In this document: positions 25,527-52,647 of the stretch, piece after piece | How the letters are laid out: each line of letters begins with the position of its first letter | How positions within the stretch are numbered: position 1 is the first letter of the stretch | DNA from: Candidatus Aminicenantales bacterium | GTDB taxonomy: Bacteria > Acidobacteriota > Aminicenantia > Aminicenantales > Saccharicenantaceae | Reading direction: 5' to 3' | NCBI GenBank assembly: GCA_049512315.1 | Contig: JBEKXF010000014.1 | Coordinates: forward strand, 11,702-75,701 | DNA: 64,000 bases | The notes under the pieces: model-generated | Seen by the model: the letters and a program-made list of their open reading frames with translations, nothing else | What the model was told of the DNA's origin: nothing | The model's database searches: none | Translations under genes and position numbers: made by a program

Positions 25527-26528
25527 CTACCACCGGATCAAGGCCGAAGCCCAGGTGTATCCCGAGCCGAACGACGTCAAGACAACGAGGTGCCCTTTCC
25601 GGATCCGGCCCTCCCGGACCGCCTCGTCGAGGGCGATGGGGATGGAGGCCGCGGTCGTGTTGCCGTACCGGTCGATGTTGCGGATGACCTTGTCCTCGGG
25701 GATCTTGAGTCCCTTGGCGACCATCAGAGAGATCCGATCGTTGGCCTGGTGGGGGATGAGGGCGTCGATGTCCCCGACCGAGAGGCCGTTCCGCTCGAGG
25801 CCGGTCCGGACGGCCTCGGGCATCCGCTCACAGGCGTTGACGAACACGTGCCGTCCGTCCATCGTTGGATAGAACTTCCCCTGGTCGAAAAACTCCCTCT
25901 GGAAGGTCGGGTTGTCGCCGGGGCACGGCTTTTCCATCCACAGCTTGGAGGCGAAGCGGCCGTCCGAGTACAGGTGGGTCGACAGGATCCCCCGCCCGTC
26001 CCCGGAGTCGTTGGGCTCGAGGATGACCGCCCCCGCGCCGTCGCCGAAGAGCACGGCCATGTCCCGGCCCTCGTCCGAGAAATCGAGGTTGGCCGATTGG
26101 ACCTCGGCGGCGACCAGAAGGATTCTTTTATAAGTTCCGGCCAGGATGAACTGGTCGGCGGCGGCCAGCGCATAGATGAAGCCGCTGCACTGGTCCCTCA
26201 CGTCCAGGGCGCCGATCGTTCCGAGGCCGAGCTTGGCCTGGACAAGGACGCCGATGCCCGGGAAGTAGTGATCGGGCGACAGCGTGGCGGCGACAATGAA
26301 ATCGATGTTCGACGGGTCGAGGCCGGCGTCTTCGATCGCCCGGCGCGCGGCCTCCACGGCCAGGTCCGAGGTGTTGACCCCCGGCTCGACATGATGGCGC
26401 GTCAGAATCCCGGTTCTCTGACGGATCCACTCGTCGGACGTGTCCATCTTTTTTTCGAGGTCCTGGTTGGTGACGACCCGGGGAGGGACGTAATGGCCGG
26501 TTCCCGTGACGACGGTTTTCCTGTCCAT
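25527..26528 (-). CDS. fabH: 3-oxoacyl-ACP synthase III
   Basis: DTSDEWI.QRTGI, QCSGF (Cys), FGDGAGA, PHQAN (His), YGNT (Asn), FGSGYTW. Confidence 0.95.
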   Translation of the reverse strand: MDRKTVVTGTGHYVPPRVVTNQDLEKKMDTSDEWIRQRTGILTRHHVEPGVNTSDLAVEAARRAIEDAGLDPSNIDFIVAATLSPDHYFPGIGVLVQAKLGLGTIGALDVRDQCSGFIYALAAADQFILAGTYKRILLVAAEVQSANLDFSDEGRDMAVLFGDGAGAVILEPNDSGDGRGILSTHLYSDGRFASKLWMEKPCPGDNPTFQREFFDQGKFYPTMDGRHVFVNACERMPEAVRTGLERNGLSVGDIDALIPHQANDRISLMVAKGLKIPEDKVIRNIDRYGNTTAASIPIALDEAVREGRIRKGHLVVLTSFGSGYTWASALIRW

Positions 26529-26588
26529 GGGCAATAACAATTATAAATGATGGGGCCGGAAAAATAAAGGAAAACCCCGGCCCGCCGG

Positions 26589-27563
26589 TCAGAGCAGGCC
26601 CTGCCGGACATACCAGTCGAGAGTCTCCCTCAGGCCTTCCTCGAGGGAAATCCGTGACTCGAAGCCCAGGGCCTCCCGGGCCTTGCGGACGTCGGCCACC
26701 CAGCCGTCCGGTTTCATGTCCTCATATTTCCCGAGGTTGAGGGCGGTCGCCCGCCCCCGCAGGCGTCCGACCCCGCCGGCGGCGGCGCAGACCAGGAAGG
26801 CGGCCCAGCCCGGGATCCGGACCCGGACGACCTTCCGTCCCAGGATGCGGGCCGCCGTTTCCCCCACTTCATCCCAGGTCGAAGGCTCGCTGCCGGCGAT
26901 GTTGACGATCTCGCCGCTCGGCACTCGGGTCCCGGCGGCGAGAAGGATCGCCCGGACGGCATCGCGCACGTGGAGGAGACTGAGGGACTTCTTCCCGCTT
27001 CCGTAGAGGGGGAGGAACCCGCTCCGGACATAGCGGAAGAACTCCAGGAAATCCTCGTCGCGCGGCCCATACACTGCGCCGGACCGGAGGATCACCAACG
27101 GAAAACGATCCCTGAACGCGAGCGCCTCCCGCTCGCCGCGGAGCTTGCTGATGCCGTAAGGGGATACGGGCCGGGGTGGGTCGTCTTCGCGGCTCGGCTT
27201 TCCCGGAGAGGACGGGCCTCCGGCCGCCAGGCTGCTGAAGATGACGACCCTCGGCGCCTCCGTCCGTCCGGCCAAGGCGCGAAAAAGGCTTGCCGTTCCG
27301 GCCTGGTTTACGGTATAATATTCGCTTGACTTGTGGGTTTTGGTCAAGCCGGCCAGGTGAAAGACGATGGACAGGCCGGACGGCAGCTCAGGGACTCTCG
27401 AAAGGTCGCCCTCGAGGAAGCGGACGCGTTCCCTCCCTTCGAGCCAACGGGCCTTCGCCGGGTTGCGGACTAGGGCATGAACTTCCGTGTCCGGGTCTTC
27501 GAGGAGCCGGTCGATGAGATGGCTTCCCACGAAGCCCGTCCCTCCGGTGACGAGGACCTTCAT
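26589..27563 (-). CDS. Extended SDR / NAD-dependent epimerase-reductase, resembling ceramide reductase (CerR)
   Basis: VTGGTGFVG, HLAGLTK, SSLAA, YGISK (YxxxK), VYGPRD; leaderless ATG at 27563. Confidence 0.85.
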   Translation of the reverse strand: MKVLVTGGTGFVGSHLIDRLLEDPDTEVHALVRNPAKARWLEGRERVRFLEGDLSRVPELPSGLSIVFHLAGLTKTHKSSEYYTVNQAGTASLFRALAGRTEAPRVVIFSSLAAGGPSSPGKPSREDDPPRPVSPYGISKLRGEREALAFRDRFPLVILRSGAVYGPRDEDFLEFFRYVRSGFLPLYGSGKKSLSLLHVRDAVRAILLAAGTRVPSGEIVNIAGSEPSTWDEVGETAARILGRKVVRVRIPGWAAFLVCAAAGGVGRLRGRATALNLGKYEDMKPDGWVADVRKAREALGFESRISLEEGLRETLDWYVRQGLL

Positions 27564-27570
27564 GGCCGGG

Positions 27571-27599
27571 ATTGTATGAGAATTGCCGCGGGCGGTCAA
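27571..27599 (-). promoter_or_regulatory. Sigma70-type promoter, leaderless
   Basis: TTGACC-N17-TACAAT with the ATG 7 nt downstream. Confidence 0.65.
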
Positions 27600-27673
27600 T
27601 GACGGCGGCGCGGACGGGAGGAAATCCTCGATGGGTTTCCCGATGAATGATGGAAAAGGAGATGGAGGAAACG

Positions 27674-28855
27674 ATGGATCTTTTTGATAAATGTCAGGAG
27701 TTCACCCGGGCCGACGAATACCAGGCGGCCGGCTTATACCCCTATTTCACGCCCATCCAGGAGGCGAAGGGGAACCGGATCAAGGTCAACGGCCGTCCCA
27801 TGATCATGGTCGGCTCCAACAACTACCTGGGGCTGGCCGACCATCCCAAGGTCAAGGAAGCGGCCAAGAAGGCCATCGACCGCTACGGCGTCGGGACCTG
27901 CGGCTCCCGGTTCCTGACGGGGACCATCGACCTCCACGTGGAGCTCGAGAACCGGCTGGCCAAGTTCATGAAAAAGGAAGCCGCGGTGACCTTCAGCACG
28001 GGCATGCAGACCAACTTCGGGATCATCTCGAGCATCGCCGGCAAGGGCGACGCCATCATCGGCGATCGGATGAACCACGCCAGCATCATCGACGCCTGCC
28101 GGCTGTCGTTCGCCGACGTCTACAAGTTCAAGCATAACGACATGCAGGACCTCGAGCGGCTCCTGGCCTCCCTGGGGCCCGACCTCGGCAAGCTCATCGT
28201 CGTCGACGGCGTTTTCAGCATGGAGGGCGACATCGCCGACCTGCCGGGCATCGTCTCCCTGGCAAAGAAATACAAGGCCCGGGTCATGGTCGACGACGCC
28301 CACGCCATCGGCGTCCTCGGGGCCCACGGCCGCGGCACGGCCGAGCACTTCGGCCTCGAAGGCGACGTGGACCTCATCATGGGCACGTTCAGCAAGACCT
28401 TCGCCTCGATCGGCGGCGTCGTCGTCGGCGAAGAGAAGGTCGTCTCCTACATCAAACACCACGCCCGGTCCATGATCTTCAGCGCCGCCGCGACGCCCGC
28501 TTCGGTGGCCTCGGTCCTGGCCATCCTGGCCATCCTCGAGACCCAGCCCGAGCTCCGCGCGCGGCTCTGGAAGATCACGACGAGGATGAGGACGAGCTAC
28601 CAGGCGATGGGCTATGACACGGGCCCTTCCCAGACGCCCATCATCCCCATCGTCATCGGCGACGACGAGAAGGGTTTCATGCTCTGGAAGCTCCTCCGGG
28701 ACGAGGGGATCTTCACGACGCCGATCATTTACCCGGCCGTGCCCCAGGGCCAGGCCATGATCCGGACGAGCTACGGCGCCGGCCACACGGACGAAGAGCT
28801 GGACGCGATCCTGGCCGCTTTCGAGAAATGCGGCAAGGCGCTGGGCATCATATGA
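27674..28855 (+). CDS. Alpha-oxoamine synthase family PLP enzyme, most like serine palmitoyltransferase
   Basis: GLYPYF, GSNNYLGL, GSRFLTGT.DLH, NHASIID, DGVFSMEGD, VDDAH, GTFSK (PLP Lys); GGAGG RBS before MDLFDKC; no bio genes nearby. Confidence 0.85.
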   Translation: MDLFDKCQEFTRADEYQAAGLYPYFTPIQEAKGNRIKVNGRPMIMVGSNNYLGLADHPKVKEAAKKAIDRYGVGTCGSRFLTGTIDLHVELENRLAKFMKKEAAVTFSTGMQTNFGIISSIAGKGDAIIGDRMNHASIIDACRLSFADVYKFKHNDMQDLERLLASLGPDLGKLIVVDGVFSMEGDIADLPGIVSLAKKYKARVMVDDAHAIGVLGAHGRGTAEHFGLEGDVDLIMGTFSKTFASIGGVVVGEEKVVSYIKHHARSMIFSAAATPASVASVLAILAILETQPELRARLWKITTRMRTSYQAMGYDTGPSQTPIIPIVIGDDEKGFMLWKLLRDEGIFTTPIIYPAVPQGQAMIRTSYGAGHTDEELDAILAAFEKCGKALGII

Positions 28856-28913: not shown

Positions 28914-30725
28914 ATGAGCAAAGCAGCCCAAAGGATCGCCCTCCTTCTCGTCGGGCTCGCCGTTCTGTCCCTCGCTTCCCGGGCCGCCTCCCCGATCATG
29001 CCTTTGGCCCAGGTCAAGGCCGGCATGAAGGGCAAGGGGAAAACGGTCTTTGCCGGGACGAAGATCGAGGACTTCGACGCCGAGGTCATCGGCGTGCTGT
29101 CCAACGTCCAGCCCAAGCGGAGCGTCATCCTCGCCCGGCTCGCCGGAAAGGGCCTCGAATCGACGGGCGTCATCAGCGGCATGAGCGGCAGCCCTGTCTA
29201 CATCGATGGCAAGCTCATCGGCGCGGTGGCCTTCAGCTTCTCCTACGCCAAGGAGGCCATCGCCGGGATCACGCCGATCGAGGAGATGCTCGCCCTGGAC
29301 AAGGCGCCCCAGGTCCCGCGTCCGGGCCTCCCGGGCCAGGTCCCGATCCGCGGCAGCATGTCCCTTGAGGACCTGTCGGCTCTCTACCGGGCGACTTTCG
29401 CCGCCCGGACGGCCTCCTCGACGGACGGCCAGCCGGTCGTCCCCCTTAGCGTTCCCTTGGTCTTCAGCGGCTTTTCGCCGTGGGCCTTCGAAAGGGCCAA
29501 ATCCTTCTTCGCGGACATGGGCTTTCGGCCGGTCCGGTCCGGGATGGGCGGTCCTCCGGCCCAGGACTCCGCACCTCCGGCAGCTTCCCTCGAGGAAGGC
29601 GACGCGATAGGCGTCCAGCTCATCGGGGGTGACCTGGACGTCTCCGCCGTCGGGACCGTGACCTATGTCAATGGCTCCAAGGTCCTGGCCTTCGGGCATC
29701 CCTTCTACAACCTCGGGGCCGTGGATTACGCCATGACCCGGGCGACGGTCCTGACAATCGTCCCGAGCCTCGAGAGCTCCTTCAAGATGGCCGTCTCCGG
29801 CCCCGTCATCGGCCGGATCTCCCAGGACCGCACGTCAGGGGCACTCGGCGAGATCGGCAAGCTGCCCGAGCTCATCCCCCTCAACATCTCCCTGACGGAC
29901 GGCCCGCTGGACCGGAAGGAGTTCAAGCTCAAGCTGGCGGACGACAAGTTCCTGACGCCGGCCCTCGTGAACCTAGCGGTTTCATCGCTCATCACCGGAG
30001 AGGAGCGGGCCTACGGCTATCTCTCCCTCGACTTCGACGGCGACATCTTTCTGGACCGGGGCACGAGCATCCACCTGGAAGACCTTTTTTCGGGGAACTA
30101 CGACACCTCCGCCACCAGCCTCTCTGGCCTCCTGGCGGCCATCGTCTATTACCTGGGCAACAACGAGTTCCGGGACGTCGGGATCTTCCGGATCGACCTG
30201 AATGTCCGGGCGACCGAGGAAGCCCGGCTCTGCGCCCTCGAGAAGGTCCTCCTGGACAAGTATGAAGTCTCTCCCGGCGAGAAGATCGAGATCAAGGTCT
30301 ATTACCGGACCTTCAAGGAGGAGACCTTGGTCGAGAACGTGACGTTCGTCGCCCCGGCCCTTCCGGCCGGCACCGAGTTCCAGATCGTCGTCGGCGACGC
30401 GGCGACGATGCAGCAGACCGAGAGGTCTCAGTACCGGGTCCCGGACTTCGTGCCGCGGAGCCTCAGCCAGCTCATCCGGATCCTGGGCAACCTCCGGAAG
30501 AACAACCGGATCTATTTCAAGATCCTCGCGCCCAAGCCGGGGATCTTCCTCAAGGGCGAGGAAATGCCGAACCTGCCGCCGACCCTCAAGTCCATGTTCA
30601 CCTCGCCGCGGGCTTCGTCGTCCGCCCCGATGGACCTCACCCGCTCCACGCTGGGCGAGTTCCAGCTTCCGGTTCCCTATGTCTTCCGGGGCGGGGCCGT
30701 GATCCCCGTCAAAATCCGAAAATAG
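28914..30725 (+). CDS. SpoIVB-like peptidase S55 domain protein, secreted
   Basis: Signal peptide; GVISGMSGSPVYIDGKLIGAV; AVGTVTYV...VLAFGHPF. Confidence 0.88.
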   Translation: MSKAAQRIALLLVGLAVLSLASRAASPIMPLAQVKAGMKGKGKTVFAGTKIEDFDAEVIGVLSNVQPKRSVILARLAGKGLESTGVISGMSGSPVYIDGKLIGAVAFSFSYAKEAIAGITPIEEMLALDKAPQVPRPGLPGQVPIRGSMSLEDLSALYRATFAARTASSTDGQPVVPLSVPLVFSGFSPWAFERAKSFFADMGFRPVRSGMGGPPAQDSAPPAASLEEGDAIGVQLIGGDLDVSAVGTVTYVNGSKVLAFGHPFYNLGAVDYAMTRATVLTIVPSLESSFKMAVSGPVIGRISQDRTSGALGEIGKLPELIPLNISLTDGPLDRKEFKLKLADDKFLTPALVNLAVSSLITGEERAYGYLSLDFDGDIFLDRGTSIHLEDLFSGNYDTSATSLSGLLAAIVYYLGNNEFRDVGIFRIDLNVRATEEARLCALEKVLLDKYEVSPGEKIEIKVYYRTFKEETLVENVTFVAPALPAGTEFQIVVGDAATMQQTERSQYRVPDFVPRSLSQLIRILGNLRKNNRIYFKILAPKPGIFLKGEEMPNLPPTLKSMFTSPRASSSAPMDLTRSTLGEFQLPVPYVFRGGAVIPVKIRK

Positions 30726-30737
30726 GAGACCGATCCC

Positions 30738-32918
30738 ATGAGAAAGATGTCCCTGTTCGGAATCCTCTGGGCCGTCGCCCTGTGCCTCACCCTCCAGGCC
30801 GTCGTTCCCCAGAAGTGGGAGCTCCGGACAAAAGAGGATTTCCTGAAGGGCAAGCTCGACGGCGTTTCGGTCTCCGACGAAGGCGTCCTGGCCCTGGCGC
30901 CCAAAGAAGAGAAGATCCTGTCGCCGACAGAGGAATTCTACCTTTCCGTGCTCCTGACGCCCGAAGGCGTCACCTATCTCGGCACCGGCCACGGCGGGAA
31001 GGTCTACCGGATCGGGAAGGACGGGAAGGCGGACCTCTATTTTCAGGCCCCCGAGATGGACGTGACGTGCCTCGCCCTGGACCAGAAGGGCGCGCTTTAC
31101 GCCGGGACATCGCCCAACGGGAAGATCTACAGGATCACGGAAAAAGCGAAAGGCGAGGCCTTTTTCGACCCCGCCGAGAAATACATCTGGGACCTCGAGC
31201 TCATGGATTCCGGTCGGCTCTGGGCGGCCGTCGGCGAGACCGGCGGCATCTACGAGATCAGCCCCCAGGGTGAGGGGCGGATGATCTTCAAGGCCGAGGA
31301 GAACCACATCCTTTGTCTGAGGAAGGGCGGCCGCGGCGACGTCCTCGCCGGGAGCGGCGGCAACGGCGTCGTCTACCGGATCTCTCCGGAAGGTCGGGCA
31401 TCCGTGATCTTTGAGACTCCGTACGAGGAGGTCCGCAGCCTGGCCGTCGACCGCGACGGACTGATTTACGCGGCCGCGTCCGGGACCCCCTCGAAGCCCA
31501 GGAAGGAGGAGGTCCCGACGGTCCAGCCCCGGTCCGAAGCGGCCGTCACCGTCACGGTCAGCTCCGTCAGCGTCCCAAGTGTCCCCGGATCGTCCGGGGG
31601 CGTTTCCGCCCCGGCGCTACCCTCCACCCAGAAAGAGTCCAGCGCCCTCTACCGGATATCGGGCGACGGAATGGCCCGGATGCTCTGGAGCTCCGATGAC
31701 GAGATGATCTACGCGCTCCTCTGGCAGGCGGGGGACCAGAAGGTCATTTTCGGCACGGGCCCGAAGGGCCGGATCTATTCTCTGGACAAGGACGAAAAGG
31801 TGTCGCTCCTCCTCCAGGAGAACTCAGAACAGGTCTTCGATCTCGTCCCGCTTGACTCGAAGATCTACGTGCTCTCCAACAACCCCTGCTACCTGGGGCA
31901 GCTCCTGACGGAACAGCGGTTTTCCGGGGAATACGTGAGCCAGGTCCTGGATGCCCGGACCCTCGCTTCCTGGGGGGGGATCGCTTGGGCCGGGAGCGCG
32001 GATGCCGGGGCGAGCCTCCAGCTCCAGACGCGGAGCGGCAACACTTATGAGCCGAATCCCACCTGGAGCGAATGGTCTCCTCCCTACCAGAAAAAAGAGG
32101 AGCAGGTCCTGAGCCCCAAGGCCAGGTACATCCAGGTCCGGGCGCTCCTGAAGACCCAGACCGGCAAGGTTTCTCCGGTCCTCGACACGCTGACCCTGTT
32201 CTACCTCCAGACCAACATCGCCCCCGCCCTCACGCGCCTGGAATTCCTGAAGCCGAACGAGGTCTTCCTCAAGCTTCCCGACCAGGAGGACGTCATCCTG
32301 GGCGTCGAAAAACGCCTCCCCGAACAGGCGCCGAAAAAGGACGACCTCAGGATCACCTTCCCGGCCAAGAAGGCCGAGCGTAAAGGTTTCCAGACCGTCG
32401 TCTGGGACGCCTCGGACGAGAACGGCGACACGCTCAGCTACACGATCTCCCTGCGGAAGGAAGGGGAGACCGAATGGCGGGTCATCCAGGACGGCTGGGC
32501 CGAAACGATCTACGCCTTCGACACGCTTTCGTATCCGGACGGGACCTACTTCATCAAGATCACGGCATCCGATTTGCCCTCCAATCCCGTGGGGCTCGAT
32601 CTCAAATCCGAGAAGGTCAGCCCGCCCCTCGTCATCGACAACTCGCTGCCGGTCGTCAAGAATTTCACGGCCGTGAGGAACGGGGCGACGCTCGAAGTGG
32701 CCTTCCAGGCCGAAGACGCGTACTCGTCCATCGAGGAGGTCAAGTGGCTGGTCAGGCCGGGCGAGTGGCGGGTGGTCTTTCCGGTGGACGGGATCTCGGA
32801 TTCGAGGAGCGAGACGTTCAAGTTCTCCGTGAGGATCCCGGCGGGCGCCGAGAACCTCATCACCGTCCGGGTCAAGGACAGTTACGGGAACGTCGGGGTC
32901 TATCGCCAAAATTATTGA
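30738..32918 (+). CDS. Secreted beta-propeller protein with C-terminal Ig/FN3-like domains
   Basis: Repeats of the form GxLYAGTxPxGKIYRI; QTRSGNT..P..TWSEWS; WDASDENGD.L.Y; follows the S55 gene by 12 nt. Confidence 0.8.
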   Translation: MRKMSLFGILWAVALCLTLQAVVPQKWELRTKEDFLKGKLDGVSVSDEGVLALAPKEEKILSPTEEFYLSVLLTPEGVTYLGTGHGGKVYRIGKDGKADLYFQAPEMDVTCLALDQKGALYAGTSPNGKIYRITEKAKGEAFFDPAEKYIWDLELMDSGRLWAAVGETGGIYEISPQGEGRMIFKAEENHILCLRKGGRGDVLAGSGGNGVVYRISPEGRASVIFETPYEEVRSLAVDRDGLIYAAASGTPSKPRKEEVPTVQPRSEAAVTVTVSSVSVPSVPGSSGGVSAPALPSTQKESSALYRISGDGMARMLWSSDDEMIYALLWQAGDQKVIFGTGPKGRIYSLDKDEKVSLLLQENSEQVFDLVPLDSKIYVLSNNPCYLGQLLTEQRFSGEYVSQVLDARTLASWGGIAWAGSADAGASLQLQTRSGNTYEPNPTWSEWSPPYQKKEEQVLSPKARYIQVRALLKTQTGKVSPVLDTLTLFYLQTNIAPALTRLEFLKPNEVFLKLPDQEDVILGVEKRLPEQAPKKDDLRITFPAKKAERKGFQTVVWDASDENGDTLSYTISLRKEGETEWRVIQDGWAETIYAFDTLSYPDGTYFIKITASDLPSNPVGLDLKSEKVSPPLVIDNSLPVVKNFTAVRNGATLEVAFQAEDAYSSIEEVKWLVRPGEWRVVFPVDGISDSRSETFKFSVRIPAGAENLITVRVKDSYGNVGVYRQNY

Positions 32919-44289: not shown

Positions 44290-44498
44290 GGTCCTCTCCT
44301 CGTTGAGAATCGACGGCGGCCCCGAATGAAGGCAAGTTATCACAAACCCTTCCTTTCCTCAAGCCGCAGTGCCCCGGGCGAACATCCGTTTTCCTCCACC
44401 ATCGTCAAGGCCGTCCGGCCGGCGTTCTTTTTGATGCAAAACGCTCCGACATCTGCTAGAATAGGGCCCGTCCGGACCCGGGAAGGAGAGGTTATGAG

Positions 44499-49045: not shown

Positions 49046-51340
49046 ATGAGAAAAATCATCCTGGCCCTGTTCCTGGCCGTCCTTCCCGGACTCCTTTCCG
49101 CCCAGGAGACCCTGGAGAAGATCGAGGTCGCCGGGAACGACCGGGTGACACGGGAGACCATCCTCTACTATATCTCGGTCAGGGAGGGCGATTACTTCAG
49201 CGAAGATCAGGTCAAAAGGGACTTCCGGGTCCTCTGGTCCACCGGCTTTTTCGCCGATCTCAAGATCGAGGACCTCCCCGGGACGCGGGGGAAGATCATC
49301 CGGATCACGGTCGAGGAGAACCCCATCATCAAGGCCGTGACCTTCAAGACCGGGAAAAAGCTCAAGGAAAGCGACATCGTCAGCAAGCTGAAGGAAAAAG
49401 ACCAGTTCATTCTTCCCTATTCCTACTACAGCCCCGCCAAGGTCCAGAAGATGAAGCAGACGATCACGGACCTTCTCAGCGAAAAGGGCCTCCTGGCGGC
49501 CAAGATCGACATGGAGGTCAGGAAGCAAGGCAAGAACGAGGTCGAGGTCCTCGTCAAGATCGACGAGGGCCCCAAGGTCCGGGTCGGCGACGTCGTCTTC
49601 GTGGGCGACACGAAGCTCCCCGCGAGCTCCCTCCGCTGGGCCATGAAGGACAACCGGCCTCACACCCTCTTCAACTGGGCCGCCGGCAAGGACGTGTACA
49701 AGCAGAACAAGCTCAAGGACGACATCGACCAGATCAAGAAGAAATATCAGGAGAACGGGTATATGGAGGCCACGGTCGGGGAGCCCCGGATCGAGGAATT
49801 CGAAAAACGGACCGTTTTCTTCAAGAAGCAGAAGATGATGCGCCTCATCATCCCCGTCAACCCCGGCTACCTCTACCGGGTCGGCGAGATCAAGATCGAG
49901 GGGAACAAGGCCTTCGCCGCCAAGGGGCTCCGGATCATGGTCAAGCTCCAGCCGGGCGAGGTGTACAGCATCAAGCTCAGGGAGAAAACGATCGAGGACA
50001 TCGCCGAGCTCTACCGCAACTACGGGCACCTCTATGTCCAGGTCGCGCCCGTGGAGAACCTGGACCCCAAGAGAAAAGTCGTCAACGTCACCTTCTCCGT
50101 CTACGAGGGCGAAGTCGTCTTTCTCAACCGCCTGGAGTTCAAGGGCAACAATTACACCAAGGACAAGGTCATCCGCCGGGAAATGCTGGTCCGGGAAGGC
50201 GACCGATTCAGCCTGGCCATGTTCAAGGACAGCATCCTCCGCATCAAGCAGCTCGGTCTCGTGGACCTCGAAAAGGACCCCGACATGAAGCCGAATCCCG
50301 AGGACCCGACCAAGATGGACGTCGTGGTGCCGGTCAAGGAGCTCCAGCGGAACAACATCCAGTTCTCGGCCGGCTACAGCGGCTACGACGGGACCTTCGT
50401 GGCCTTCGGCTACTCCACGGTCAACTTCCTGGGGGCCGGGGAGAACGTGGACCTCCAGCTCCAGCAAGGCAAACTGGTCAAGAACTACTCGGTCGGATTC
50501 TCCGAGCCCTACCTCTTCGACCAGCCGATGACGGCCGGCCTCAATCTCTACGACCGGTACTCCAATTACAGCACTTATGGCCTCTACACCCAGAAATCGA
50601 TTGGCGTCGACCTGAGCTTGGGGGCCCGGATCCTCGGCTACTGGCGGGCGAGCGCGACGTACACGATCCAGAAGGTCACCGTCTCCTATCCCACAGCGAC
50701 GACGATGTCGTATATCTACGGCTCCGGCACATTCTATGAGAGCTCGATCACCCCGATGCTCTACCGGTCGACGATCGACAGTCCCCTGACGCCCTCCCGG
50801 GGGACCCTGTATTCGGCATCGGTCAAGTTCGCCGGGTCGTTCCTCGGTGGCGATATCGACATCATCAAGCCCCAGCTCGAGTTCGCCCACTACCAGCCAT
50901 TCATCGCCAAGCACGTCATCGGCCTTCATCTCGAGTATATGTACATCAAGGCCTACAACGCTTCCCAGGTGCCCTACTGGGAAAAGTCCTTTCTCGGCGG
51001 CGAACGCTCCATCCGGGGCTACGAAGTTTACGCGATCGGCCCCCGGAACGAGAGCGGTTACAACCTGGGCGGCAACAAGTCCATCGTCATGAACGCGGAG
51101 TACATCGTCCCCGTCGGCGGGCCCCTGTACGCAATAGCATTCTATGACGTCGGAAACTCGCTTTCGGCGACCCAAAGCTTCAGCCTGAAGGACATGTACA
51201 CGTCGACCGGCCTCGAAGCCCGCATCTTCATCCCGGCGCTCCGGGTCCCCTTCCGGCTGATCTTCGCGTACAACAATCGCAAGACCTACTCCGACCAGTC
51301 GAACTTCGCCTTCCGTTTCGCCGTCGGCACGACGTTCTGA
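49046..51340 (+). CDS. bamA: Outer membrane protein assembly factor BamA
   Basis: Signal peptide, five POTRA-like repeats (e.g. GNNYTKDKVIRRE), IRGY loop motif, C-terminal FAVGTTF. Confidence 0.95.
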   Translation: MRKIILALFLAVLPGLLSAQETLEKIEVAGNDRVTRETILYYISVREGDYFSEDQVKRDFRVLWSTGFFADLKIEDLPGTRGKIIRITVEENPIIKAVTFKTGKKLKESDIVSKLKEKDQFILPYSYYSPAKVQKMKQTITDLLSEKGLLAAKIDMEVRKQGKNEVEVLVKIDEGPKVRVGDVVFVGDTKLPASSLRWAMKDNRPHTLFNWAAGKDVYKQNKLKDDIDQIKKKYQENGYMEATVGEPRIEEFEKRTVFFKKQKMMRLIIPVNPGYLYRVGEIKIEGNKAFAAKGLRIMVKLQPGEVYSIKLREKTIEDIAELYRNYGHLYVQVAPVENLDPKRKVVNVTFSVYEGEVVFLNRLEFKGNNYTKDKVIRREMLVREGDRFSLAMFKDSILRIKQLGLVDLEKDPDMKPNPEDPTKMDVVVPVKELQRNNIQFSAGYSGYDGTFVAFGYSTVNFLGAGENVDLQLQQGKLVKNYSVGFSEPYLFDQPMTAGLNLYDRYSNYSTYGLYTQKSIGVDLSLGARILGYWRASATYTIQKVTVSYPTATTMSYIYGSGTFYESSITPMLYRSTIDSPLTPSRGTLYSASVKFAGSFLGGDIDIIKPQLEFAHYQPFIAKHVIGLHLEYMYIKAYNASQVPYWEKSFLGGERSIRGYEVYAIGPRNESGYNLGGNKSIVMNAEYIVPVGGPLYAIAFYDVGNSLSATQSFSLKDMYTSTGLEARIFIPALRVPFRLIFAYNNRKTYSDQSNFAFRFAVGTTF

Positions 51341-51379
51341 CGGCCCCGAGGCCGGACAAGGCATAGAGGAGGTCGGGCC

Positions 51380-51874
51380 ATGATTTCGATCGAAGACATC
51401 TCCAGGCTTCTTCCGCACCGGTTCCCTTTCCTGCTCATCGACAGGGTTATCGATTTCGCCCCGGAAAAGTTCATCGTGGCCCTGAAGAATGTGACCTGCA
51501 ACGAACATTTCTTCCAGGGTCATTTCCCCGACTGGAAGATCATGCCGGGCGTCCTGATCATCGAGGCCATCGCCCAGGCCGGGGCTGTCCTTCTCTTCAA
51601 CTCGATCCCGGACCCCGAACGCAAGTTCATCCTCCTGAGCAAGCTCGACAAGGCCAAGTTCAAAAGGATGGTCATCCCCGGCGACCAGATCCGGATCGAG
51701 GTCCAGTGGATCCGGCATAAAGGACGGATCTTTCGGATGAAGGGGAAAGCCCTCGTCGATGGCGAGATCGCCGCCGAGGGCGAGATCTTCGCCACGGTCA
51801 TGGACATCGAGGAGCTGGCGGACAAAAAAAAGGCGACGCCGCCGGCCCGGCCTTCCCCCAGCGCGGGATCTTGA
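51380..51874 (+). CDS. fabZ: 3-hydroxyacyl-ACP dehydratase
   Basis: LPHRFPFLLIDRV, KNVT.NE.FFQGHFP...MPGVLIIEA.AQ, V.PGDQ. Confidence 0.95.
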   Translation: MISIEDISRLLPHRFPFLLIDRVIDFAPEKFIVALKNVTCNEHFFQGHFPDWKIMPGVLIIEAIAQAGAVLLFNSIPDPERKFILLSKLDKAKFKRMVIPGDQIRIEVQWIRHKGRIFRMKGKALVDGEIAAEGEIFATVMDIEELADKKKATPPARPSPSAGS

Positions 51875-51906
51875 TCAGCCGGCCCCTGCCGGAGAAAGCC
51901 CGAAGA

Positions 51907-52647
51907 TCACTTGCTCATCGTGAAGAGGGAGTCCGCGAGGTTGCTGTTGAAGGTGATCTTGGTGAAGGTCAGTTTCATATATTCGGAGCCGTCCTGGAGG
52001 GTCCGGATCGAATGGGCCATGATCACCCCGTTGACCTGCTTGTAGTCGGAGGGATAGCTCTCAGCCTTGACATCGGCGCCGTTCATCCCGACCTCGACCG
52101 ATTCCCCCTTGTAGACGAGATAGGTCCCGGGGTCGATGTAGATCGCGGTCTTGTGGCCGTCCGCGGTCGTCTGCTCGAGGACGATGTAGTCCTTGCCCTC
52201 GATCTTGGCCTTAGGCTTCAGCGCGTAGGTGATGTTGTATTTCTCGGGATGGAGATAGGCATCGTTGCCCATGGCCTCCCGGGAAAACGCCTTGGCCTGG
52301 GCCTCGGGCATTTCCTCGACGGCGCCCCCGTTCTGGGGATTGGTCCACATGGCCTTCTGACCGTCATAGGCCTGGGTCATCATCATGTTCATGACGGTGA
52401 TGTCCATGTCCGCCCGCATCTTATTGGGCTCCTTTTGGTACATCGTGAAGGTCCCGCTCATCTGCATCGGAACGAGTTCATAGGTGCCGGTCATGGTCGT
52501 GTCCTTGATGGCCGTCAGGGCCTTGCGTCCGCCCATAGCGTCGATGACCTTGTTGAGGACATCCTGGGCGTTCTGGCCGTAGCCCGGCAGCGCAGCGACA
52601 GAAACCAGGATCAAGGCCGCCATGGTCCAGGAGAAGAGTTTCTTCAT
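51907..52647 (-). CDS. Secreted LolA-like / outer membrane lipoprotein-sorting-family protein
   Basis: Signal peptide; AQDVL.K.IDAMGG..AL, PNKMR, QAYDG..AW, IDP.TYL, SDYKQVNG..MAH, N.NL.DSLF; AGGAGG RBS. Confidence 0.7.
   Translation of the reverse strand: MKKLFSWTMAALILVSVAALPGYGQNAQDVLNKVIDAMGGRKALTAIKDTTMTGTYELVPMQMSGTFTMYQKEPNKMRADMDITVMNMMMTQAYDGQKAMWTNPQNGGAVEEMPEAQAKAFSREAMGNDAYLHPEKYNITYALKPKAKIEGKDYIVLEQTTADGHKTAIYIDPGTYLVYKGESVEVGMNGADVKAESYPSDYKQVNGVIMAHSIRTLQDGSEYMKLTFTKITFNSNLADSLFTMSK

Follow-up and report, generated by a model that had tools for sequence, protein, structure and literature searches.

Does a divergent gene pair in an uncultured member of the Acidobacteriota encode part of a route to ceramide-type lipids? 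The pair lies in a 64,000-nucleotide stretch of a Candidatus Aminicenantales genome (contig JBEKXF010000014.1, positions 11,702 to 75,701; G000:C14:11702-75701 in our numbering), which is referred to here as the window. The genome comprises 3.55 Mb in 77 contigs and is 96.6% complete. One gene of the pair encodes an alpha-oxoamine synthase (AOS) resembling serine palmitoyltransferase (Spt). The other encodes an extended short-chain dehydrogenase/reductase (SDR) resembling CerR, the reductase of the known pathway in which Spt, CerR and the N-acyltransferase bCerS act together; fabH follows it on the same strand (Table 1). Aminicenantes are uncultured anaerobes that abound in sediments and subsurface waters, and to our knowledge nothing is known of their membranes. 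Judging from sequence comparison, we consider it probable that the enzymes of the divergent pair catalyse two steps in a bacterial pathway of the ceramide type.

The original prediction, made from the letters of the window alone, had named these three genes. All three open reading frames (ORFs) are where it placed them, and every motif that it quoted stands in the translations: GLYPYF, GSRFLTGTIDLH, DGVFSMEGD and GTFSK in the synthase, and HLAGLTK, SSLAA, YGISK and VYGPRD in the SDR. Pfam assigns the synthase frame (27647-28855, plus strand) to Aminotran_1_2 (E 4e-64), as an AOS of the class I/II aminotransferase fold, and the SDR frame (26589-27599, minus strand) to the Epimerase family (E 7e-35). 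A start at 27674 fits the synthase because most of its close homologs are 393 amino acids (aa) long. For the SDR the boundary at 27563 is preferred, since the SDRs of relatives align from residue 13 and the upstream TTG at 27599 belongs to the -35 hexamer of a promoter-like site.

The synthase

Among the NCBIfam models, the synthase is best matched by NF047600 (SerpalmtaseCFB), at 516.8 bits, and this Spt model leads those for Kbl and BioF by about 100 bits. All AOS models match the protein and none reaches its own cut-off. This applies to Kbl (NF005394, 416.7 against 460 bits; TIGR01822, 348 against 493) and to BioF (TIGR00858, 403.6 against 426.45), and a BioF/Kbl-related subfamily scores 432.4 bits. 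Synthases encoded in sets with a GCN5-related N-acetyltransferase (GNAT) and an SDR score on the CFB (Cytophaga-Flavobacterium-Bacteroides) model much as the one in the window does: Aureispira 487, Rubrobacter 444 and Streptomyces 377 bits. The best solved relative is the Spt of Sphingobacterium multivorum (8guh/3a2b), at 415 bits, followed by Thermus BioF/Kbl (321), Sphingomonas Spt (283-295) and E. coli Kbl (288 bits). More distant are a cysteate acyltransferase (252), BioF (212), 5-aminolevulinate synthase (184) and CqsA (128 bits). Of the 120 closest homologs listed, the four that carry an organism name are all 'Candidatus Aminicenantes'.

The original prediction had suggested a tree with characterised Spt, BioF, Kbl and HemA. 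In our careful tree of 40 rows, which holds no HemA, one clade (support 98/90) unites the window's own clade with all four named Spts, the three set-linked AOSs and two natural AOS-GNAT fusions. The window's clade itself has seven rows (100/100). Outside the Spt clade fall E. coli Kbl together with the second AOS of this genome, on contig C6 (100/100), as well as BioF and the AOSs from polyketide synthase (PKS) clusters. A quick tree of 81 rows agrees. Homologs on Thioclava and Methylocystis plasmids belong to PKS-type clusters and that of Streptomyces NBC_00158 is a PKS-fused synthase; these were set aside as uninformative.

Several results weigh against an Spt identity. The synthase falls under the cut-off of every curated Spt model (NF047600, 516.8/640; NF047599, 387.4/500; NF047603, 326.5/670 bits); these were built for the CFB, beta-proteobacterial and alpha-proteobacterial clades, respectively, and the control synthases pass their own (Bacteroides 700.5 and Parabacteroides 683.8 on CFB, E. 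coli 599.9 on beta, Sphingomonas 833.4 bits on alpha). Besides the C6 gene, the outgroups of the 40-row tree are one Kbl and one BioF, with no CqsA rows either. In the approximately unbiased (AU) test, joining the window clade to Kbl costs 26.65 log-likelihood units with p 0.121, so that this grouping is not rejected. Finally, when searched against an E. coli chromosome, the synthase scores nearly equally on Spt (298 bits) and Kbl (287 bits).

These results bring up the reading in which the synthase is a housekeeping Kbl or BioF, serving threonine catabolism or biotin synthesis, and its neighbour an SDR-type threonine dehydrogenase or an unrelated protein. The Kbl and BioF scores do come near their cut-offs, the AU test leaves the Kbl grouping standing, and homologs of the synthase are annotated in the source records as 8-amino-7-oxononanoate synthase. 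The genome, however, contains only two AOS genes, and the one on C6 already passes both Kbl cut-offs (564 and 563.8 bits) and groups with E. coli Kbl. BioB was not found in the genome, where the highest-scoring match reaches 44 of the 225 bits required; tblastn with E. coli BioB and BioC gives no match there at E 1e-8 or better, and BioA has only weak matches of 28-30%. The original prediction had noted that no bioABD or tdh genes are nearby, and indeed none of the bioA, bioB, bioD or tdh families appears among the genes annotated across the window. As to the neighbour, threonine dehydrogenase is absent from the names of the best 60 of 81 solved SDR relatives, and the best E. coli partner of the SDR is a CerR homolog. 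With a true Kbl on C6 and BioB missing, we rejected a BioF or Kbl identity, and we regard this reading as highly unlikely. The exclusion of Kbl rests on branch support and context and not on the AU test. The comparisons taken together support an Spt-like synthase rather than BioF or the genome's Kbl. That part of the original prediction is upheld by the best model, the best structure and the clade with all named Spts, and is qualified by the AU test.

The reductase

Our link to the characterised CerR and bCerS runs through their E. coli and Sphingomonas homologs named in PMC9386255, with no Caulobacter sequence in the comparison. Passages of that paper list E. coli BL21 and Sphingomonas homologs of five Caulobacter ceramide genes, namely spt, acpR, epi (CerR, CC_1164), aasR and aca (CerS, CC_1154, which is yghO), and give ECD_02852, ECD_02850 (yghO) and ECD_02854 as the equivalents of Caulobacter CerR, CerS and Spt. 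Both the E. coli and the Sphingomonas cluster were located in named records. With E. coli epi as query, the window SDR is the top match in the genome (E 1e-22, the next being 1.8e-8), and with the SDR as query, epi is the top match in an E. coli chromosome record (85.9 against 50.3 bits). The two align over their full length with 30% identity (E 2e-29). The nearest named relatives are the SDRs of the AOS-GNAT-SDR sets, from Streptomyces (42%), Rubrobacter (36%) and Aureispira (33%). The protein has the NAD(P)-binding GxxGxxG motif (GGTGFVG) and the catalytic YxxxK (YGISK). It would have no signal peptide, since it starts directly with the Rossmann motif. Reciprocal best hits with the E. coli equivalent of CC_1164, as that equivalence is given in passages of PMC9386255, and conserved adjacency to the synthase bear out the original description of this SDR as CerR-like.

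The tree that had been proposed for the SDR gives a mixed answer. Built with the paralogs of this genome and of E. coli, it places the SDR outside a nine-row clade (89/96) that contains seven of the nine own paralogs and two sugar-type SDRs of E. coli. Against the CerR reading, the tree lacks resolution at its base and has no CerR clade (one E. coli row is a fragment of 45 aa), and the best NCBIfam match of the SDR is HpnA, at 99 bits, far under the cut-off.

Conservation and linkage of the pair

At a threshold of E 1e-60, all 61 genomes of the order, this one included, have an AOS match. In 42 of them there is an ortholog of at least 66% identity (in one case split), 18 have only an AOS homolog of 48-55%, and the remaining genome has a Kbl-like gene alone. 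All 30 synthase-centred loci of the order have the SDR adjacent to the synthase and divergent from it, as do 25 of the 30 SDR-centred loci, which were drawn from the class; outside the order, the divergent pair is found in 10 of the 15 class-level genomes present in both tables. Across a sample of the phylum, Spt-like matches at E 1e-100 or better occur in 61 of 251 genomes (a count that includes the unpublished G084), divided into 22/22 within the class and 39/229 outside it. A second Spt-like paralog of 48-55% identity is common in the order (for example, G012:C22:50014-51135 and G038:C21:23999-25129) and is absent here.

AOS and SDR genes are also associated with a YghO-type GNAT gene in Rubrobacter, Streptomyces, Aureispira, E. 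coli and Sphingomonas. In Aureispira, of the Bacteroidota, SDR and AOS are likewise divergent and the GNAT comes next, and Rubrobacter and Streptomyces have AOS-GNAT-SDR operons. In P0127 (777 aa) and P0132 (780 aa), a YghO-like GNAT of the type called A below is naturally fused to an Spt-like AOS, which is 56% and 50% identical, respectively, to the window synthase. Adjacent AOS-GNAT pairs were also seen in relatives (G008, contig C7; G049, contig C70). The window synthase has the same genomic company, with the SDR adjacent and bCerS-family genes elsewhere in the genome.

Conserved adjacency could also arise if the SDR were a sugar-nucleotide or hopanoid-type epimerase or dehydratase, or a partner of FabH in fatty-acid metabolism, and merely a constant neighbour of the synthase. 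The HpnA match would fit this, as would the sugar epimerases and dehydratases that are its best solved relatives, the missing CerR clade and the presence of the SDR beside fabH in 21/30 loci. Moreover, three genomes (G038, G046 and G050) retain SDR and fabH with no adjacent synthase, a further point against our reading, from which it follows that the SDR is not strictly dependent on this synthase gene. In one of these, G038, the SDR directly adjoins the S55-like peptidase gene, whose counterpart in the window comes after the AOS. On the other side, the matches to HpnA and sugar-type SDRs are all far under cut-off, the SDR stands outside the clade of its own paralogs and the E. coli sugar-type enzymes, it and the CerR homolog epi are each other's best hit, and the named SDRs nearest to it come from AOS-GNAT-SDR sets in three other phyla. 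We therefore consider an unrelated SDR very unlikely and keep the CerR-like assignment.

The bCerS-family N-acyltransferases

The original prediction saw no bCerS in the window, and the window proves to hold no bCerS-family GNAT. The genome search that it suggested, done here with the Rubrobacter GNAT as query, finds three full-length GNATs of the YghO/CC_1154 family on contigs C40, C9 and C16, where the prediction would have been undermined by finding none. In the GNAT tree they fall into two groups, A and B, each with support 100/100. Type A comprises YghO, Sphingomonas aca, the set-linked GNATs, the fusion proteins and the C40 copy; type B comprises a GNAT of Bacteroides finegoldii and the C9 and C16 copies. 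A C9-type GNAT of at least 63% identity is present in nearly all 61 genomes of the order. Three paralogs of the bCerS family in one genome provide a concrete case for sorting out the roles of paralogs.

That no GNAT is adjacent to the pair here counts against its membership in a ceramide pathway. Three relatives (G001, G002 and G039) have an additional type-A GNAT between a LonC-like gene and ribH, about 17 kb downstream of the AOS (15-19 kb from it). In the window this syntenic copy has been deleted: the ORF is gone from the site (44344-44498), and the upstream leader of the relatives' gene is kept. The relatives' syntenic GNAT is about 40% identical to the C40 copy of this genome.

Two of the GNAT genes stand among other lipid-type genes. 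The C40 copy, which has a 93% ortholog in G002, belongs to a second lipid-type cluster of lower third-position GC (G000:C40:7000-20000; L011:5322-17927). On one strand this cluster encodes the type-A GNAT, a PKS of 2667 aa, a phosphopantetheinyl transferase, a PAP2_3 protein, an extended SDR and an Rce1-like protease; the PKS has an enoyl reductase of the nitronate monooxygenase type along with KS, AT, acyl carrier protein (ACP), KR and DH domains. The cluster could feed or decorate an N-acylated lipid. The C16 copy is part of a minus-strand run (G000:C16:35300-41900; L013:6301-12895) of genes for a FabH-like beta-ketoacyl-ACP synthase III (KAS III), a radical SAM protein, the type-B GNAT, a CDP-alcohol phosphatidyltransferase, a second radical SAM protein and a protein of 338 aa. 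This run looks like an operon for lipid head-group or tail modification.

The proposed pathway

Homology gives the identities of the genes, and the comparisons also establish that the pair is adjacent in a conserved way and that all three families are present in the genome. The substrates, the order of the steps, the GNAT partner and the production of sphingolipids we infer as follows. The synthase would form a 3-keto long-chain base by joining L-serine, or a close amino-acid analogue, to the acyl group of a long-chain thioester. With no gene for a dedicated ACP or acyl-ACP synthetase beside the synthase gene, this thioester is probably an acyl-CoA, as it is in Bacteroidota. A YghO/bCerS-family GNAT from C40, C9 or C16 would then N-acylate the base, and the SDR, acting in the cytoplasm, would reduce the 3-keto group with NAD(P)H. 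The original interpretation, that this lineage may make sphingolipids, is largely borne out as regards the Spt-like and CerR-like genes and is extended by the bCerS homologs, with function predicted throughout; the role that it gave to FabH (see below) is not supported.

The identity of the amino acid deserves separate attention. The synthase might instead make the base of a non-serine amino-lipid, such as a capnine-type sulfonolipid from cysteate, a 1-deoxy base or some other, with the SDR as its ketoreductase. This would accommodate a synthase that stays under all Spt cut-offs and forms a separate, long-conserved branch. Among the solved structures, a cysteate-C-fatty acyltransferase (28eh) is clearly related to it (the 252 bits cited above), and passages of Ding et al. 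(PMC11334938) put forward the hypothesis that Spt-like enzymes take other amino acids. Yet the synthase is far closer to characterised Spt, at 415 bits, than to the cysteate enzyme, and it is accompanied by partners known from the ceramide pathway, namely a CerR homolog and bCerS-family GNATs. We regard a non-serine base as unlikely, although it is the alternative that we take most seriously, and serine remains the substrate that we favour.

fabH and the gene neighborhood

The original prediction had FabH supplying acyl primers to the pathway. We find no support for such a special role. The window fabH is over both cut-offs for canonical FabH (NF006829, 380.6 against 249 bits; TIGR00747, 357.9 against 292.1), and it is the only one of the four KAS III genes in the genome to be so, the other three falling under both. 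A fatty-acid cluster on contig C9 (yceD-plsX-acpP-fabF-fabG-fabD; G000:C9:51500-57500, L012:512-6458), in which YceD and PlsX were identified by Pfam and the ACP, FabF, FabG and FabD were named from position and size alone, has no fabH. Since the window gene is the only canonical fabH in the genome and the C9 cluster is without one, it would be the housekeeping copy. It looks like a housekeeping gene in a conserved neighbourhood, one that encodes the ordinary condensing enzyme for initiation in this cell and is a neighbour of the pathway genes rather than a member of the pathway.

The neighbourhood itself is well kept. In 21 of the 30 SDR-centred loci, fabH follows the SDR within 1.5 kb, and it appears within the 1.5-kb flanks of 20 of the 30 synthase-centred loci, a count limited by those flanks. 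In the window the SDR and fabH are probably co-transcribed, being on one strand with no terminator-like site in the gap between them. In families that have LpxC, an ORF of 165-169 aa on the opposite strand stands between SDR and fabH (L104:2473-2982, L123:2454-2951); it has no Pfam match and is absent from the 48-bp gap of the window. Adjacency of fabH was considered as a mark of the genera without lipopolysaccharide (LPS) only, and was rejected because the SDR-centred loci show a downstream fabH in other families. On the other side of the pair, the S55-like and beta-propeller-like genes come directly after the synthase, in an order kept in G001, G002 and G039. The remaining genes of the window are housekeeping genes.

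Table 1. Features of the locus and related genes. Positions are those of the window unless a contig (C40, C9, C16) is named.
Feature	Position	Strand	Remarks
fabH, canonical KAS III	25527..26540	-	48 bp downstream of SDR, same strand
Extended SDR, CerR-like reductase, 324 aa	26589..27563	-	Motifs GGTGFVG and YGISK; no signal peptide
Divergent intergenic region, 110 bp	27564..27673	.	Holds promoter-like site for SDR
Promoter-like site for SDR	27599-27571	-	TTGACC, 17-nt spacer, TACAAT; 10/12 matches; consensus match only
AOS, Spt-like, 393 aa	27674..28855	+	Open frame starts at 27647; pyridoxal phosphate (PLP) lysine within GTFSK
S55 (SpoIVB-like) peptidase-domain protein (603 aa), then 726-aa protein with weak beta-propeller matches	28914-32918	+	
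Empty GNAT site, 155-bp gap between LonC-like gene and ribH	44344..44498	.	By comparison with G001, G002 and G039
bamA	49046-51340		
fabZ	51380-51874		
lolA-like gene	51907-52647		
YghO/bCerS-family GNAT, type A	C40:18808-19905		
YghO/bCerS-family GNAT, type B	C9:60588-61715		
YghO/bCerS-family GNAT, type B	C16:38491-39597		

Lipid A genes and the outer membrane

The genome keeps LptF/G, an LptD-like gene and BamA, and no LpxC, LpxB or LpxA C-domain was found in it. Of the 61 genomes in the order, 33 have LpxC and 33 have the LpxA domain, with identical tallies by genus: they occur in none of the 28 genomes of five genera (g1, g3, g4, g6 and g7), this genome among them, and in 33/33 of the rest. 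The loss has left a visible scar in the window, where the order is bamA-fabZ-lolA-like with gaps of only 39 bp (51341-51379) and 32 bp (51875-51906). The LpxC-positive relative G039 has bamA-skp-fabZ-lpxA-lpxI-oxidoreductase (GFO/IDH/MocA)-M48-lolA-like in the same place.

It is tempting to connect this loss with the sphingolipid-type genes, and such lipids may help to build the outer membrane of this lineage. Since LpxC-positive relatives also carry these genes, they predate the loss of lipid A; being older, they may have been a pre-adaptation that allowed it. As a tentative proposal, which we think could be right but would not bet on, the five genera discarded lipid A synthesis altogether and now have an outer leaflet of sphingolipids, produced with the Spt/CerR/bCerS-like set and exported by the retained Lpt machinery. 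If true, this would be a natural and independent repeat, in Acidobacteriota, of the Sphingomonas route, and would mirror what Caulobacter can be forced to do. In any case, with lpxA and lpxC absent from 28/28 genomes of five genera, a connection of sphingolipids with the LPS-free way of life becomes testable in a new phylum. In two papers that name both Aminicenantes and lipopolysaccharide, the passages on the latter do not concern Aminicenantes.

Comparison with known systems

Ceramides are reportedly present in an Acidobacterium, according to one study. A literature search for Aminicenantes together with sphingolipids found two papers, of which the one listed mentions each word a single time. 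Sphingolipids are found in quantity in anoxic waters and sediments, according to passages of PMC11334938 and PMC12619533, and a synthase present throughout the class (all 22 sampled genomes) would make Aminicenantes a predictable source of environmental sphingolipids.

The comparison with LPS-lacking bacteria that have sphingolipids, as described in parts of PMC11087976 and PMC9393093 for Sphingomonas and for Caulobacter mutants without lipid A, shows both likeness and difference. The present lineage is also missing lpxA, lpxB and lpxC, keeps its outer membrane machinery and has the Spt, CerR and bCerS gene set. Unlike the situation there, its sphingolipid-type genes are not specific to the genera without LPS, and no glycosphingolipid genes were identified.

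The synthase compares best with the Spt of Bacteroidota (S. multivorum, 3a2b/8guh; NF047600), with which it aligns over residues 12-394 and shares the PLP lysine in GTFSK. Both are stand-alone, soluble-type enzymes with no ACP gene beside them. Identity to the Parabacteroides, Bacteroides and Aureispira homologs is 46-51%. Unlike the Spts of Bacteroides and Parabacteroides, the window synthase is under the 640-bit cut-off and in a clade of its own, and whereas the spt of Bacteroides adjoins a gene of the diacylglycerol-kinase family, this one adjoins an SDR.

The SDR compares best with Caulobacter CerR and the epi proteins of E. coli and Sphingomonas, all extended SDRs of about 300-325 aa. It is 29-30% identical to epi of the latter two and, as in those organisms, encoded next to the synthase. 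The arrangement differs in that the window pair is divergent and has no acpR or aasR, whereas the Caulobacter-type genes are operonic. Caulobacter CerR is described as periplasmic in a passage of PMC11087976, in contrast to the window SDR with its missing signal peptide. BT_0972, the 3-ketosphinganine reductase of B. thetaiotaomicron, carries out the same chemical step as the one proposed for the window SDR, but it belongs to the classical SDRs, has a mass of about 31 kDa and was discovered by its similarity to Tsc10/FVT1 (per passages of PMC9278070), where ours is extended and epimerase-type.

As for bCerS (CC_1154) and YghO, of the three full-length homologs in the genome the C40 copy falls together with YghO and the aca of Sphingomonas, and the other two belong to the second subfamily, shared with Bacteroides. 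Spt-like genes have already been reported in metagenome-assembled genomes of 38 Black Sea phyla, according to passages of PMC11334938, so that the locus is best seen as a further instance of the known Spt-bCerS-CerR pathway. The variant predicted here would combine a Bacteroidota-like synthase with a reductase of the Caulobacter/E. coli type and no dedicated ACP.

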